From Desulfuromonadales bacterium (GTDB taxonomy: Bacteria; Desulfobacterota; Desulfuromonadia; Desulfuromonadales; JAHYIW01): 64,000 bases of DNA. The stretch is taken from contig JARGFI010000009.1 in assembly GCA_029210745.1 (NCBI GenBank), positions 852 through 64,851 of the forward strand, written 5' to 3'. This document shows positions 1,203 through 10,609 of this stretch, in pieces. Below the pieces are notes generated by a model that saw nothing but the letters and a program-made list of their open reading frames with translations, did no database searches and was not told the origin of the DNA. Position 1 is the stretch's first letter. Every line of letters begins with the position of its first letter. A program made the position numbers and the translations under genes.

Positions 1203-1946
1203 TTGTCCAAAGAACGTCTTGATAAAATACTTGTGGATCGTGGTTTGACCCCCTCGCGGGAGCGTGCCCGGGCGCTAATTCTGGCCGGGCAAGTGGTGGT
1301 TGATGATCACCGGATCGACAAGGCCGGAACCAGGGTGTCACCGCTGGCTGACATTCGTCTTAAAGGTGCGGATATTCCCTATGTCTCACGGGGAGGACTG
1401 AAGCTGGAGAAGGGGCTCGATGCCTTTGCGGTGGCGGTGCAGGGACGGGTCGCCATCGATGTCGGTGCATCGACCGGGGGGTTTACCGATTGCCTGTTGC
1501 AACATGGCGCGGCCAGGGTTTTTGCCGTGGATGTCGGTTACGGGCAGCTGGCCTGGAAGCTCCGCGATGATCCACGGGTAGTGAACCTGGAGCGTACCAA
1601 TATCCGTGACCTGAGTAGCTCTCAATTGGCCGAACCGCCTTCACTGGCGGTCATCGACGCATCGTTTATTTCCCTCAAGCTGGTTCTGCCGCCAACGCTT
1701 AAGCTGCTGACGCCTGACGCTGAAATCATTGCCCTGATCAAACCTCAATTTGAGGTTGGCAAAGGAAAGGTCGGCAAGGGTGGGGTGGTGCGTGATCCGG
1801 AACAGCACCGTGAGACAGTGGCGGCGATTGAAGCTGTTGCGGTTGAACTTGGTTGCCGGGTTGATAAAGTCATTGCAAGCCCGTTGCTCGGGCCGAAGGG
1901 CAATCGTGAATTCCTGATCCATCTTTATAAAAAGGCGACGCCATGA
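1203..1946 (+). CDS. tlyA: TlyA family rRNA 2'-O-methyltransferase (S4 + FtsJ-like domains)
   Basis: KERLD S4 start, [43 protein letters not shown]; likely TTG start at 1203. Confidence 0.95.
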
Positions 1947-2719
1947 ATCATGTCTGGTTTGTCGGTGCCGGTCCGGGGGACCCTGACCTGCTGACCCGCA
2001 AGGGGGAGCGGTTGTTGCGCGAATGTGTCACGGTTTTTGCTGCCGAACCGTTCGCCGTGACATTTACGGAACTGGTAGCTGGCAAAGAGATACTGAGTCC
2101 TTTTGCCTATTATTTTGATGAGCTGATCGGTGTGGTTGAAGAGCGACTGGTCACTGGATCGGTGGTTTTTCTGATCCCTGGCGACTTGACTTTTTATGCG
2201 CCGTTTCAGGGCCTGATCGAACGTCTCGGTGAGCGCGCCGTGGTGGTGCCGGGGGTCGGGATTGTCAATGCTGCTTCAGCGCTGCTGCGCAAGACCCTCG
2301 ATCTGCCCGGTATTTGTAATCGTGTTATCGTCACTTCGCCACGGACCCTTGGTGATCATCATCAGGCACCGTCTCTGTCTGAACTGGCGGCACCGGGAGT
2401 CACCCTGCTGATCTACATGAACAATCGCCCGTTGTCCGCACTGACCGCCGAGTTGAAGACCGGCTATGGTCAAAACGTCCCGATTGCCCTTCTGCACCGG
2501 GTGGGATTGCCCGGTGAGGAGGTGATCAGCGGGACGCTCGATGATATTGTCCCTTTGGTTGGTGACCGTGAGAACGTTCTGTTCAATCTGGGGGACCCGA
2601 CCGGACGACCGGCATTGACGCTGGTGATTGTTGGCGAGACACTGGCCGCGCGCCCTGACGGTACCTGGTGGGATTATCGCCGTGAACATATCTGGCGCCA
2701 GCGTGAGGGGGAGCAGTAA
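1943..2719 (+). CDS. Tetrapyrrole-methylase-fold SAM-dependent methyltransferase (divergent CobM/CbiF-like)
   Basis: [22 protein letters not shown] and VVPGV motifs; start overlaps the tlyA stop (ATGA). Confidence 0.8.
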
Positions 2720-2722
2720 CCG

Positions 2723-3682
2723 ATGCGGATCATCTCGCCGATCGATAACGCTGCCGAGGTTGTACCGCTGCTTGCTGCCGGTGCTGACGAACTCTATGGC
2801 GGCTATGTGCCGAGCGCCTGGCAGGAACGTTATCGCTTGCTCGCCTCCCTCAATCAACGCACTTTTGCCGGTGCGCAAATTGAGAGCGAGGCGGAATTAG
2901 CGGAGATAATCGCGGCCTTGCATGAGCAGGGGAAAACCTTCTCCCTGACCCTTAATGCCCCCTTTTACGATGACCGGCAGTTGCCGCTGGTACTTGATTA
3001 CGTCGGGCGGATGGCAGAGCTGGGGGTTGACGGGATTATCCTCGCCGATCTGGTTTTGCTTGCCCAGCTTCGGCAACGCTTTCCCGTCTTTGAGTACCAC
3101 GCCAGCACATTGGCCCATCTGACCAACGCGGCGGCCGTGCGTTTTTATGTGCAACAGGGGATTCAGCGAGCCGTCTTGCCGCGCCATCTGACTGTTGCCG
3201 AGCTGGAGGCGATAGCAACCGGTCTGCCGGAAATCCGTTTTGACGCTTTTATGCTGGTCGGAAAATGTGCCAATACTGAAGGACTTTGTTCGTTTCATCA
3301 TAGCAGCCCTGATGAAATCTGGCCGTGCGAAATCCCTTATAGCATCGCACCGTGTCATCCTCCCGGCAGCGCAAATCTCAACCAGGCGATGGAACGCCAG
3401 GCGCTCTGGTCGCGCAGCAATCGCCGTCACGGTTGTGGACTTTGTGCGCTCCCCGCGCTGTCGCGGATCGGTATACACGGGGTTAAGCTGGTTGGGCGTG
3501 GCGCGGCGACGCGAGTTAAAATCCGCAATGTAAAGCTGGTGAAAGAGTTTATCGCGCTGAGTGCGAAAGAAACCGACCCAAAGGTGTTCCAACGCCGTGC
3601 GCGCGACGCTCATTCTGCATCTTTCGGGTCGCCATGTTGCAGAAATGTATGTTACTATCCCGAATTCCTGGAGGAGAAGTAG
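2723..3682 (+). CDS. U32-family protein, probably Fe-S binding
   Basis: AGADELYGG, GVDGIILADL, HASTL, RAVLPRHLT, C-x6-C-x12-C, GCGLC, KLVGRG (KIEGR equivalent) and C-terminal CCxxxCYY. Confidence 0.85.
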   Translation: MRIISPIDNAAEVVPLLAAGADELYGGYVPSAWQERYRLLASLNQRTFAGAQIESEAELAEIIAALHEQGKTFSLTLNAPFYDDRQLPLVLDYVGRMAELGVDGIILADLVLLAQLRQRFPVFEYHASTLAHLTNAAAVRFYVQQGIQRAVLPRHLTVAELEAIATGLPEIRFDAFMLVGKCANTEGLCSFHHSSPDEIWPCEIPYSIAPCHPPGSANLNQAMERQALWSRSNRRHGCGLCALPALSRIGIHGVKLVGRGAATRVKIRNVKLVKEFIALSAKETDPKVFQRRARDAHSASFGSPCCRNVCYYPEFLEEK

Positions 3683-3704: not shown

Positions 3705-4052
3705 ATGGCTACGAACTGTCTTTTTTGTAAAATAAATTCCGGCGAAATTCCGGGAAAATTTATTTACGAGGATGAGGATCTGATCGCTTTTGCGGATATT
3801 AATCCTCAGGCACCGCATCACTATCTGCTGGTGCCACGTCGTCATATTCCGACCACCCTCGATCTGACTGCTGACGACGCGGCATTGATCGGTCGTATCT
3901 ATCTGGCGGCCGGGAAGATCGCTCGACAGCTTGGCTTTGCTGAAGCAGGATTTCGGGTGGTGAACAATTGTAACGAGGCCGCCGGACAAACTGTCTGGCA
4001 TATCCATTTTCATCTGCTCGCCGGGCGCAACCTGACCTGGCCGCCGGGCTGA
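3705..4052 (+). CDS. hinT: Histidine triad (HIT/Hint) nucleotide-binding protein
   Basis: CLFCKI, DINPQAP, GQTVWHIHFHLL triad, WPPG end. Confidence 0.95.
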   Translation: MATNCLFCKINSGEIPGKFIYEDEDLIAFADINPQAPHHYLLVPRRHIPTTLDLTADDAALIGRIYLAAGKIARQLGFAEAGFRVVNNCNEAAGQTVWHIHFHLLAGRNLTWPPG

Positions 4053-4066
4053 AGCCCCCTTGATCT

Positions 4067-5536
4067 ATGAAGTCGACTGACACAGACATACACAAACGCC
4101 AGCAGCAGCGGCTGATGAGCGAGATCATGGAGCTGCTGGTGACGCACTTCGGTGCCGGGTTGAGCGAAGAGGAACTCGATCGTTCGATTGAACGGTTGCA
4201 GAAGTCGTTCGCTCTGGCGCAGGCCTCGCACGACACGCAAATGCGCAAGTCGGGAGAACCTTATATCTTTCACCCGCTGCGGGTTGCCCATCTGGCGGCG
4301 CGTCACTGGATGGATTTTCCGCCGGTTATTGCTGCGATTTTGCATGATGTTGTCGAAGACACTCCGGTAACACTGGCGCATGTCAGCGAAGAGTTCGGCA
4401 AAGAAGTGGCGTTTCTGGTTAACGGCCTGACCAAGGTGACGGACGATCATCTCAGTCGCGATGCCCTGAAGGCGGAGACGTACCGTAAAACAGTGCTGTC
4501 AGCGGTCGATGATGTCCGTGTCCTGTGTCTCAAATTCTGGGACCGAATTGATAATTTACAAACGATCGGTGCCCTTAAACCGGAAAAACAATCATTGATT
4601 GCCGAGGAAACCCGTACCATCTATGTCCCGCTGGCGCGTCATCTCGGCATGGGGTATGTTGCTTCCGAGCTTGAGGCTTTGTCGTTACAGGTGGTTTATC
4701 CGCGCCTCGCGGCAACCTATCACGCGCTGGTTGAAGAACTGCGCCATGAGTTTACGCCAAAGTTGCGAAAAATTCGTTCCAAGATTCAGACCTCTTTTGA
4801 GCAGCATAAGCTCAATGCAACCTTGCGTGACCGCTGGCGCTCATTTTCGACCGATGCTGCAAAGCAGAGAAAGCGCGGAGTCACGTCGCTGTATACTCTG
4901 GAAATTCAGGTTGATCGCACGATGGACGCCTATGTGGCGCTCGGTTTACTGCACGGTATATATTATCCGATCCCCGGTAAATTACGCGATCATCTCAGTG
5001 TCATGTCGCAGTTCGGTTATCAGGCGCTGAAAACGACGGTCCAGGCGCGCACCACGCGAATTCGCGTCGAAATCACCACTCGCAAGCTGGCGCGTTTCAA
5101 CGCGGCAGGGGTGTTGGCGCCAGGGTTCGAGTTCCGCAAAGATAATTTCCGTGACCTGATGCATTCACTCTCCGACGGCGAATCGGCGTTCGATTCCGAA
5201 CGCTTGCGACTGGCATCGAGTACGATTCAGGTCTATACGCCGATCGGTCAGATCGTGACCTTGCCGGAGGGGAGCAGCGTTCTCGATTTTGCTTTCCAGA
5301 TTCACGAAGCGCTGGGCCTGCATGCTCAACGCGCGCGGGTCAATGGCCAAACCCGCCAGCTGCGATCGCGCCTGATGGATGGTGATCAGGTCGGGATTGA
5401 ACGCGCCGATAAGCCGGTAGTGCTGCCGAAATGGCTCGAATGGACGGTCACTCCGAAAGCACGTAACGCTATCCGGCGTTACCTGCGAACCCGGGTCAAG
5501 GAGAGCGATAAAAATGAGGAACAATCCACCGTTTAA
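4067..5536 (+). CDS. RelA/SpoT homologue: HD hydrolase + degenerate synthetase + TGS, C-terminally truncated
   Basis: RKSGEPYIFHP and LHDVVEDT (HD), TGS VYTP..LPEGSSVLDFAFQIH; synthetase motifs eroded; ends after the helical domain. Confidence 0.85.
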   Translation: MKSTDTDIHKRQQQRLMSEIMELLVTHFGAGLSEEELDRSIERLQKSFALAQASHDTQMRKSGEPYIFHPLRVAHLAARHWMDFPPVIAAILHDVVEDTPVTLAHVSEEFGKEVAFLVNGLTKVTDDHLSRDALKAETYRKTVLSAVDDVRVLCLKFWDRIDNLQTIGALKPEKQSLIAEETRTIYVPLARHLGMGYVASELEALSLQVVYPRLAATYHALVEELRHEFTPKLRKIRSKIQTSFEQHKLNATLRDRWRSFSTDAAKQRKRGVTSLYTLEIQVDRTMDAYVALGLLHGIYYPIPGKLRDHLSVMSQFGYQALKTTVQARTTRIRVEITTRKLARFNAAGVLAPGFEFRKDNFRDLMHSLSDGESAFDSERLRLASSTIQVYTPIGQIVTLPEGSSVLDFAFQIHEALGLHAQRARVNGQTRQLRSRLMDGDQVGIERADKPVVLPKWLEWTVTPKARNAIRRYLRTRVKESDKNEEQSTV

Positions 5537-9220: not shown

Positions 9221-10609
9221 TTATCCGAGTTCGTTGTATTCGCGGGCGCGAAACTTCACCCCTGTCTCGTCTGCCGCGGCACGACATGCCGCCATATCCA
9301 GGCCGGGCAGGGCTACTGCGGTTGCAATCACCTCGGGAATATGCGCCTTCGCCAGAGTCAGAAACTCCTTAACCGCGACGTACCCCTGTTCACCGAAACG
9401 CGAACGGCACCAGTGCTGATACGTCGCGGCATCGGCAGCGTTGAGCGACACCGAAACAGTGTCGATCAGCCCGTGCAATTCCGGCAGAATATTGCGCTGA
9501 TGAACCAGGTTGGCCTGGCCGTCAGTGTTGACCCGCACTTTACACCCTTGCTCCTTGAGCCAGGCGGCAATTTCCTTGACCAGATCAATCCGCAACAATG
9601 GTTCACCGTAGCCGCAGAAAACCACTTCGCGAAAACGGGACGGATCGCCGATGGCGGCACGTACCTCGGCGACCGACGGCTCACGCTCCAGTTTGAGCTG
9701 ATGGCCTTTAACTGTCCAATCCTTGAATTTGGCGCAAAAAGTACAGCTGTTGGTGCATCGATTGGTGATGTTGAGATAAAGGGAATCGCGGATGGCGTAA
9801 GCTATCCGCGCCGATTGATCGATGTCACCAATACCGAACAGGCGATAGGCGTTAAGGCTGGTGATGCGGCTGATGTCGGCGAGCGACAGCCCTTTGATCT
9901 CAGCCAGTTTTTCCGCAGTGTAACGCAGGTAGGCGGGTTCATTGCGTTTACCGCGAAATTTTTGCGGTGACAGATATGGGCAGTCGGTTTCGATCAATAG
10001 ATGATCCGTGGAAATCGACCGCGCCACGGCGCGCAGTGCGTCGTTATTCGGATAGGTGATGGTTGCGGGGAAAGAGATGTAAAACCCGAGCTCAATGCAG
10101 GCGTGAGCCATGGCGATGTCACCAGAGAAACAGTGCAGTACACCGCCGACCGCTGCCGCGTCTTCTTCGCGCAAAATGGTCAACACATCGTCGTGCGCGT
10201 CACGATCATGAACAATGAGCGGAAGATTGACCTCTTTGGCCAGCGCGATCTGGTGACGAAAACAGTTGTGCTGAATGGCGCGCGGTGCGCGGTCACGATA
10301 ATAATCCAGCCCCATCTCGCCGACCGCGACAACCTTGTCAGATGATACAATCAGCTGTTGCAATGCGGCGCGAGTTTCTGCGTTGGCCGTTGCGGCATCG
10401 TGGGGGTGAATGCCAACTGCGGCATAGATGTGCGGGGTGCTCTTTGCCAATTCCACCGCAGCCTGTGAACTCTTCAAGTCGCAGCCGACGGTAAGGATGT
10501 GCGTGACCCCGGCAGCGGTGGCGCGAGTGATCACTGCCGCGCGGTCCGCGTCGTAGCCAGCTCCATCAAGGTGTGCATGGGTGTCTGTCAATTGAACAAG
10601 TGGATTCAT
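9221..10609 (-). CDS. tatD: TatD-family hydrolase fused to a radical SAM domain
   Basis: DTHAHL, GIHPH, GEMGLDY, HDRDA, HCFSG, ETDCPYL, NEP, then YLNITNRCTNSCTFC (CxxxCxxC) and GYGEP. Confidence 0.92.
   Translation of the reverse strand: MNPLVQLTDTHAHLDGAGYDADRAAVITRATAAGVTHILTVGCDLKSSQAAVELAKSTPHIYAAVGIHPHDAATANAETRAALQQLIVSSDKVVAVGEMGLDYYRDRAPRAIQHNCFRHQIALAKEVNLPLIVHDRDAHDDVLTILREEDAAAVGGVLHCFSGDIAMAHACIELGFYISFPATITYPNNDALRAVARSISTDHLLIETDCPYLSPQKFRGKRNEPAYLRYTAEKLAEIKGLSLADISRITSLNAYRLFGIGDIDQSARIAYAIRDSLYLNITNRCTNSCTFCAKFKDWTVKGHQLKLEREPSVAEVRAAIGDPSRFREVVFCGYGEPLLRIDLVKEIAAWLKEQGCKVRVNTDGQANLVHQRNILPELHGLIDTVSVSLNAADAATYQHWCRSRFGEQGYVAVKEFLTLAKAHIPEVIATAVALPGLDMAACRAAADETGVKFRAREYNELG

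Follow-up and report, generated by a model that had tools for sequence, protein, structure and literature searches.

Three closely packed genes near the start of a 64,000-nucleotide stretch of Desulfuromonadales DNA (the window; assembly GCA_029210745.1, contig JARGFI010000009.1, positions 852 to 64,851 of the forward strand) raise the question of what a methyltransferase and a U32-family protein encoded side by side may modify. All three lie on the plus strand: (i) a tlyA-type open reading frame (ORF) from TTG 1203 to TGA 1946, encoding a TlyA-family rRNA cytidine 2′-O-methyltransferase with S4 and FtsJ domains (TIGR00478); (ii) MT, from ATG 1943 to TAA 2719, encoding a 258-residue class III (tetrapyrrole-methylase fold) S-adenosylmethionine (SAM) methyltransferase (PF00590); and (iii) U, from ATG 2723 to TAG 3682, encoding a 319-residue U32 protein (PF01136) predicted to be a subunit of an O2-independent [4Fe-4S] hydroxylase. 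A preliminary description of this DNA had proposed a module in which RNA or a cofactor is hydroxylated and then methylated to a methoxy-type product. The tight packing it reported was confirmed, with an ATGA overlap at positions 1943-1946 and a 3-bp gap (CCG) at 2720-2722. As hundreds of full-length homologs were found for each, MT and U are not chance ORFs; the closest share ~60-76% identity over their full length, and those with names are from Desulfuromonadales or unclassified deltaproteobacteria. Two results are solid: U is one half of an unlinked pair of the UbiU-UbiV kind, with a partner here named V, and MT represents a methyltransferase subfamily mislabelled as CbiF. The best explanation we can offer for the locus, and a tentative one, is that U is a subunit of a hydroxylase of the UbiU-UbiV kind while MT methylates the same target first or independently; the most likely target would be an aromatic side chain of a protein.

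The U32 protein and its predicted partner

U was matched by the Peptidase_U32 model PF01136 at 103.5 bits (cut-off 22.4), with no other Pfam domain, and its structural model is a TIM-barrel fold with 5D88 (the U32 protein Mk0906) as the top Foldseek match at E 3.6e-7; a search of PDB sequences with U returned nothing at E 1. Three characterized identities were ruled out: UbiU, for which U scored 85 bits against a cut-off of 440 (NF047963); TrhP, at 65.5 against 534 bits; and RlhA. Neither a DUF3656 nor a U32_C domain was found in U, which falls in a clade separate from both TrhP and RlhA. In the quick tree on which the U32 placement rests, U was found within a starred clade of 52 rows apart from UbiU, TrhP, and RlhA, and two further U32 genes of the genome grouped with RlhA and TrhP of E. 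coli. With an E limit of 1e-30, a profile search with U recovered 598 cluster representatives. U resembles RlhA and TrhP, which hydroxylate RNA in a prephenate-dependent manner, in its U32 domain, an acidic residue, and the first two Cys. In RlhA the residues E161, C169, and C176 are essential (PMC6599085), and D174, C182, and C189 of U stand in register with them, all three being invariant and Asp replacing Glu. Altogether seven Cys of U (C182-X6-C189-X12-C202, C238, C241, C305, and C310) were invariant in 57 of 57 close homologs. The four-Cys cluster motifs of U32 Fe-S hydroxylases with which this spacing was compared are CX6CX16CX38C and CX6CX15CX3/4C. Retention of the acidic residue and the CX6C pair supports the earlier claim that the U32 protein is of the Fe-S hydroxylase type. 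The supplementary table of PMC5727448 gives exactly three U32 entries (PepU32#1, PepU32#6, and RlhA1) for Geoalkalibacter subterraneus, a species of the same order, and the present genome likewise has three U32 genes (TrhP-like, U, and RlhA-like); thus, by elimination from the table rows, U is probably PepU32#6. For that uncharacterized subfamily, the part of Kimura et al. 2017 consulted gives no function, partner, or linked methyltransferase, whereas U has a predicted partner and a linked methyltransferase. The same supplement (rows 544-547) holds four PepU32#6 entries with near-consecutive accessions for Candidatus Methylomirabilis oxyfera, which suggests a tandem cluster.

The partner was traced through other families of the phylum, where relatives of U mostly adjoin a gene for 250-300 residues without a Pfam match. 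A profile built from 17 such neighbours found one copy in this genome, outside the window on the plus strand of contig C77 (G000:C77:9115-9909, equivalent to L208:7116-7910; 170 bits). This gene, V, encodes 264 residues; upstream of it lies an mltD-like gene in ~20 order-level loci, and moeA takes this place in other families. HHalign related V distantly to the U profile (probability 90%, E 1.7e-6), and its match to E. coli UbiV was not significant (probability 0.9%, E 0.063). No NCBIfam model, that of UbiV (NF047965) included, matched V at E 1e-6, and the V profile gave only a chance-level match among PDB sequences. Four Cys of V (C41, C200, C211, and C215) resemble the CXnCX12CX3C motif described for UbiV (PMC6747719). 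The presence of V was searched in 62 genomes and was found to follow that of U: V was detected in all 18 order-level relatives with U examined, in none of the 12 genomes with neither MT nor U, and in none of eight same-class genomes, while among the 10 genomes with MT only it occurred once (G016), as a copy with its own U in a quinohaemoprotein amine dehydrogenase (qhp) cluster. Of the 13 genomes in four other families that have both MT and U, 12 have V, and the 13th has a 26-residue match at a contig edge. Since U and V are unlinked, their co-occurrence is not explicable by joint deletion. Fusions of V to U were also detected, in 2 of 149 representatives scanned (P0329 and P0360).

Overall, we consider it very likely that U and V are the two subunits of one hydroxylase. 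In UbiU-UbiV, a heterodimer, each subunit carries one [4Fe-4S] cluster (PMC6747719), and prephenate is required as the oxygen donor, with an aromatic substrate having been proposed (PMC10990095). Like UbiU-UbiV (YhbU/YhbV of E. coli), U and V are two U32-fold proteins without extra domains that co-occur and are found fused, U having the acidic residue and the CX6C start of the motif and V a far N-terminal Cys followed by a C-terminal CX10CX3C. Unlike UbiU-UbiV, they fall in a separate clade, their genes are unlinked, U has three further invariant Cys, and an MT gene is attached. By homology, U and V would form a heterodimer in which each subunit binds a [4Fe-4S] cluster, and, once an aromatic ring has been oxidized, prephenate would serve as the oxygen source; a pheA-type gene in the genome shows only that prephenate can be made.

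The surroundings of V offered no clue to the substrate: (i) its neighbourhoods hold mltD, TPR, and Smr genes, or moeA in other families; and (ii) 80 metagenomic V loci shared no common neighbour, their contexts including lipA/lipB-dnaJ, a non-canonical NTPase, and efflux genes (named from sequence starts or Pfam scans). Plasmid matches in Clostridium and Roseburia, at 23-26% identity, were uninformative. A second U-V clade was observed in lipB-lipA-V-U-dnaJ (or hrcA-grpE) operons (L161, L167, L170, L171, and L173, and metagenomic loci such as L239, L250, and L255), and several genomes of that clade carry an additional solitary U near a radical SAM gene. A separate U relative of 705 residues on a single short contig (P0351) joins a U-type domain to a HemN/HemW-like radical SAM domain; it could represent an assembly error or a hydroxylase joined to a methylase.

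A methyltransferase subfamily distinct from CbiF

MT was matched by the TP_methylase model PF00590 at 103.4 bits (cut-off 27.8) and scored 98.8 bits with the CbiF/CobM model TIGR01465, under its cut-off of 259.65. A separate true cbiF was found on contig C11, scoring 330.2 bits with TIGR01465 and clustering with genes matched by cbiC, cbiD, cbiL, cbiG, cbiH-cobQ, cbiB, and cobD models; its product and MT share 31% identity. When 13 ORFs of the cob/cbi cluster were used as tblastn queries (cob genes outside this set were not searched), they matched MT alone in the window, in agreement with the earlier statement that it holds no other cob/cbi gene. Orthologs of MT were detected in 29 of 41 genomes of the order, all at E 5e-61 or better, and the next matches, at the level of CbiF, began at 3e-25. 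Phylogenetic analysis placed MT in a clade of its own (support 99/99), and approximately unbiased (AU) tests rejected two placements of MT inside CbiF (p 0.002 and 0.016) as well as a sister relation of MT and CbiF (p 0.008), while a clade of MT and RsmI survived (p 0.41). This tree comprised 25 rows under a simple model (LG+G4) with sparse outgroups and CbiF from this order only. Among 21 NCBIfam matches of MT at E 0.01, no RsmI or Dph5 family model was found. The claim of the preliminary description that MT is not the cbiF of this genome is therefore upheld by the TIGR01465 score, the C11 gene, and the AU tests, and the tree gives no nesting of MT within CbiF. MT is thus a class III methyltransferase subfamily of its own, which databases mislabel as CbiF.

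Among the loci mapped, MT never occurred inside a cob cluster, and cbiD was present in 37 of 42 genomes with MT compared with 10 of 12 without it. Two genomes rated 100% complete (G025 and G416) keep MT without cbiD, cobQ, or cobS, and a third (G062, 95% complete) has MT, U, and V and, of these three genes, cobS only. The MT of G025 is the most diverged, which could reflect decay.

MT shares the class III fold and the GAGPGD and GD motifs with CbiF/CobM, whereas its invariant SPR and W-D/N-x-R motifs and its position outside the CbiF clade and the cbi cluster set it apart; the two motifs quoted in the preliminary description, of 18 and 10 residues, are present in the MT translation. Residue roles in CbiF/CobM were taken from PMC6478909, with Pro10, Asp83, Ser112, Leu165, and Ala193 of CobM as the SAM residues compared. 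Invariant in 40 MT orthologs are P11, D81, and M159, the Ala193 position is occupied by V, L, or I, and the Ser112 position varies; judged from this alignment, the SAM pocket looks mostly preserved. The CbiF site His100/Thr101 (HTGDP) is replaced by I78/P79 (IPGDL), and P79 was invariant in all 40 orthologs. The structural model of MT (pLDDT 92) had its best fold matches in CobM/CbiF (Z 13.7, rmsd 14.5 over 224 residues), CbiF/CobM was also the best match among PDB sequences (E 2.9e-20), and diphthine synthase and SonM matched at Z 11-12, ~2 Z units lower. The ~14 Å rmsd between the model and CbiF would most simply be an artefact of domain placement in a monomer model of a dimeric family, and it was not taken as a new fold. 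A search of the ESM Atlas returned PF00590 and PF01136 clusters only. The top longer matches of MT were tandem PF00590 or cob fusions; three proteins of 584-588 residues (P0399-P0401) have two tandem PF00590 domains, a hydrophobic N terminus, and an insertion in each domain, and are unlike cob enzymes in appearance.

Linkage of the methyltransferase to the U32 pair

Across the 41 genomes of the order, U was found directly behind MT in all 19 genomes with U, MT occurred alone in 10 of the 29 genomes that have it (three of these 10 being under 90% complete), and 12 genomes had neither. U was never found without MT, either in these 19 genomes or in 13 genomes of four other MT-bearing families. 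Of 100 GTDB loci, the best 80 were compared; U followed MT in 58 of these, was a fragment in 2, was absent in 19, and was undecidable in 1. A sample of 401 genomes of the phylum included 18 with MT, and 16 of these also had this U. The arrangement ispA-dxs-tlyA-(MglA-like GTPase)-MT-U, or an assembled part of it, was shared by 11 genomes from three other families, one with a 2-kb gap before U, while two genomes of a fourth family have MT and U on separate contigs in different neighbourhoods. In G062, mnmE precedes MT, and the neighbourhood of U includes dtd, tilS, pheA, and a TrhP-like gene. The adjacency of MT and U is thus conserved across several families of the phylum, as the preliminary description would require, and the link is one-sided: within the order U never occurs without MT, and MT often occurs without U. 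Short U32 remnants were observed right behind an intact MT in two loci (L078 and L083), consistent with recent loss of the U32 gene only.

This one-sidedness bears on the order of the reactions. The motifs of MT were intact in 11 orthologs from U-less genomes. An MT dependent on a hydroxylated substrate would be expected to disappear with the hydroxylase, yet MT persists without any hydroxylase subunit in 10 genomes. The proposed order of hydroxylation followed by methylation is not borne out, and we regard a methoxy route by itself as very unlikely; methylation first, or independent action, is compatible with the persistence of MT. Nor did the two-gene module stand, as the strict partner of U is the unlinked UbiV-like V, and four genomes (G069, G207, G108, and G347; 97-100% complete) have a U-V pair of the same starred clade without an MT match. 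MT was likewise absent from all 80 metagenomic V loci; together, these loci and the MT-less genomes indicate that U-V does not depend on MT in general.

The first gene is probably no part of the pathway either. The TlyA protein was confirmed by TIGR00478 (248.8 bits, cut-off 185.8) and by Pfam FtsJ and S4 domains, and its gene lies directly upstream of MT in 76 of the 80 GTDB loci and one gene away in other families; however, all 20 genomes that lack both MT and U keep tlyA, which is probably a conserved operon neighbour. In 18 loci without MT and U, tlyA is followed by SbcD-like/AAA genes or by a HIT gene (with an intervening ORF in one), the HIT gene thus being retained. In the window this gene (3705..4052, plus strand; HIT-family nucleotide hydrolase, PF01230) starts 22 bp past the stop codon of U, so the operon extends downstream, a point omitted from the earlier account. 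It is a conserved member of the same syntenic block and is followed by a gene for a short RelA/SpoT-like protein of 489 residues (4067..5536, plus strand; HD, partial synthetase, and TGS regions), which scored under the TIGR00691 cut-off and is kept after HIT across the order Desulfuromonadales. This block is either more ancient than MT-U or more stable. Most relatives, unlike the window, carry an SbcD/SbcC-like pair (a metallophosphoesterase and an SMC-like AAA ATPase) between U and HIT (e.g., L031:8909-11101 and L029:7938-9068), and in three families tlyA and MT are separated by an MglA-like small GTPase of 300-370 residues that is extended at its C terminus (L153:7169-8170, minus strand, and nine similar loci). 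Overall, the preliminary description was supported in that MT is not the cbiF of this genome, that U has residues of the Fe-S hydroxylase type, and that the two adjoin each other widely, and it was not supported on the methoxy order, the two-gene module, and the membership of tlyA.

Whether MT is functionally tied to U-V at all must be weighed against a possible, though doubtful, reading in which the U-V hydroxylase is real and MT is unrelated to it, MT and U both sitting in an old operon (tlyA-MT-U32-SbcD-like-AAA-HIT-RelA/SpoT-like) whose members were lost piecemeal. The MT genes without U and the U-V pairs without MT described above fit such a reading, as does the gain and loss of the SbcD-like and AAA genes in this block. 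Several further observations weigh on the same side and against a tie: (i) joint loss of MT and U as neighbours may have been one deletion; (ii) on a poorly resolved TlyA tree, with 11 changes of MT and 16 of U, only three independent pairs fell on starred branches (sign test, p 0.25); and (iii) no MT-U or MT-V fusion was found among the best 120 of 143 longer matches, which is weak evidence. A rate comparison among related genomes picked by MT similarity points towards a tie, with a mean identity difference between MT and TlyA of -14.6 in 20 U-less loci compared with -10.9 in 55 loci, i.e., MT diverges slightly faster without U. A Fisher's test on the order-level counts (19/0/10/12, p 9e-5) was rejected as evidence, as kin and neighbouring genes are not independent. 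Against an unrelated MT are the absence of U without MT in the 19 order-level and 13 other-family genomes, the two genomes that keep both genes even when unlinked, and an MT-U order that outlasts changes of the flanking genes between families. On balance, we lean slightly towards MT being functionally tied to U-V.

Candidate targets and significance

A clue to the target was provided by a related U-V clade inside qhp clusters, where the pair lies between the structural/maturase genes and the ABC transporter/S8 peptidase genes; such clusters with a V-U pair were observed in anaerobes (L015:3479-12207 in G016, L174-L181, L210, and L212). QhpG is an O2-using peptidyl-tryptophan dihydroxylase (PMC7876137). 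No QhpG ortholog was detected in 13 genomes searched, 11 of which have a qhp-type U-V pair, and only two matches of 40-50 residues were returned by a query that matches PDB 7CTQ (E 3e-153); the WW motif of the cysteine tryptophylquinone (CTQ) precursor was found in 9 of 11 qhp loci. As the U-V pair stands in qhp clusters of genomes without a QhpG match, this U32 lineage is probably able to hydroxylate protein tryptophan, likely doing the same job by analogy, and these pairs are candidates for an O2-independent route to the CTQ cofactor. Unlike U-V, QhpG is an O2-using flavoprotein, and a qhp cluster is missing from the present genome. Some class III methyltransferases act on proteins (diphthine synthase and the borosins). 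Together with the qhp-type U-V clade, these make an aromatic residue of a protein our leading guess, and, given a tie between MT and U-V, we moderately favour a protein over RNA or a cofactor as the target by analogy.

An RNA target is unlikely but deserves comparison, with MT and U-V modifying an rRNA or tRNA base (the methoxy route included) and TlyA as a co-regulated neighbour. The fold of MT is also that of RsmI, diphthine synthase, and the borosin N-methyltransferases, giving precedent for RNA as well as protein substrates, and an MT+RsmI clade was not rejected; RlhA and TrhP hydroxylate pyrimidines (PMC5727448, PMC6599085), and the main support comes from the adjacency of tlyA, together with mnmE and tilS lying nearby in G062. 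Set against this are the retention of tlyA where MT and U are both missing and the absence from U and MT of any RNA-binding extension in Pfam, although the latter is weak evidence, E. coli RsmI being acidic as well. In addition, the genome has separate RlhA-like and TrhP-like U32 genes, and wobble-uridine methoxylation looks already served by the TrhP-like one and a TIGR00452 gene. The TIGR00452 gene, which we take to be CmoB, was above cut-off in this genome and four others, and the TrmR-type PF01596 was found in none of five genomes searched. Tailoring of a tetrapyrrole, corrinoid, or quinone, such as methylation followed by hydroxylation on a cobamide or menaquinone ring, is still less probable. 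In its favour, CbiF/CobM are the best sequence and structure matches of MT, cbiD accompanies MT in most genomes, a quinone ring is the substrate of UbiU-UbiV (PMC6747719), and the U relative P0351 includes a HemN-like radical SAM domain as a fusion; yet cbiD is nearly as frequent where MT is missing, G025, G416, and G062 keep MT with few or none of the corrin genes, and MT lies outside cob clusters with the His100/Thr101 site replaced. That the locus is simply a redundant cbiF beside a collagenase-type U32 protease, as the database names of homologs ("precorrin-4 C11-methyltransferase" and "putative protease") imply, is scarcely credible, as MT fails the CbiF cut-off that the C11 gene passes at 330 bits, the AU tests reject nesting, and the seven invariant Cys with a co-occurring UbiV-like gene fit Fe-S hydroxylases.

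The explanation favoured here has its own difficulties. The third and fourth Cys of U are out of register with C193/C232 of UbiU, in a loop of low confidence in the model, and the catalytic-region Glu is Asp; in MT, I107 takes the place of the SAM-contacting Ser112 of CobM, and orthologs have Thr, Ala, Ile, Ser, or Val there. The neighbourhoods of U, V, and MT yielded no substrate gene, and no qhp genes are present in this genome, so its U-V target differs from the CTQ precursor. What is established comprises the genes and the families they belong to, the distinction of MT from CbiF and of U from UbiU, TrhP, and RlhA, the pattern in which the three genes occur, and the V-U fusions. Our proposal adds a shared target and an order of steps that are read from gene distribution only: MT would methylate the target first, or independently of U-V, and the U-V heterodimer, encoded by unlinked genes, would hydroxylate the aromatic ring of a protein residue without O2, using oxygen from prephenate. 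The fullest form of this proposal, a three-protein system in which MT acts first, methylating an aromatic residue of a housekeeping protein, and a U32 heterodimer with two clusters then uses prephenate to hydroxylate that side chain anaerobically, is doubtful when taken with all its steps. In the literature searched, which left out most subscription papers, the MT/U-V combination was not found described; no relevant paper was found on U32 with a tetrapyrrole methylase, quinohaemoprotein amine dehydrogenase (QHNDH), or hydroxytryptophan, or on QHNDH in anaerobes, and U32 with Desulfuromonas returned nothing relevant (in PMC13510729, U325 is a selenocysteine).

Two further genes were observed apart from these. 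On the minus strand of the window (9221-10609), a TatD nuclease and a radical SAM domain are joined in one protein, with TIGR04038 above cut-off. In the cbi cluster, a second ThiC-like gene (L001:1300-2607, G000:C11) fell under the BzaB cut-off and is probably a BzaF-type lower-ligand enzyme.

Of the twelve U32 subfamilies, most are without known function (PMC10990095). For one of them a second subunit can now be named, V, the product of a gene without family annotation, and the enzyme thereby becomes open to testing; without V, U would probably show no activity. The mislabelling of MT as CbiF inflates the B12-pathway calls made for Desulfuromonadales, and the order provides a natural three-state comparison (MT with U, MT only, and neither) that includes cultured relatives. 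If the target is an aromatic residue of a protein, there would be a further class of enzymes that hydroxylate protein side chains independently of O2. Furthermore, the three-protein system, if true, would stand as an ancestral-type counterpart to the QhpG-replacing U32 pairs and would carry U32 chemistry beyond quinones and RNA to protein residues.

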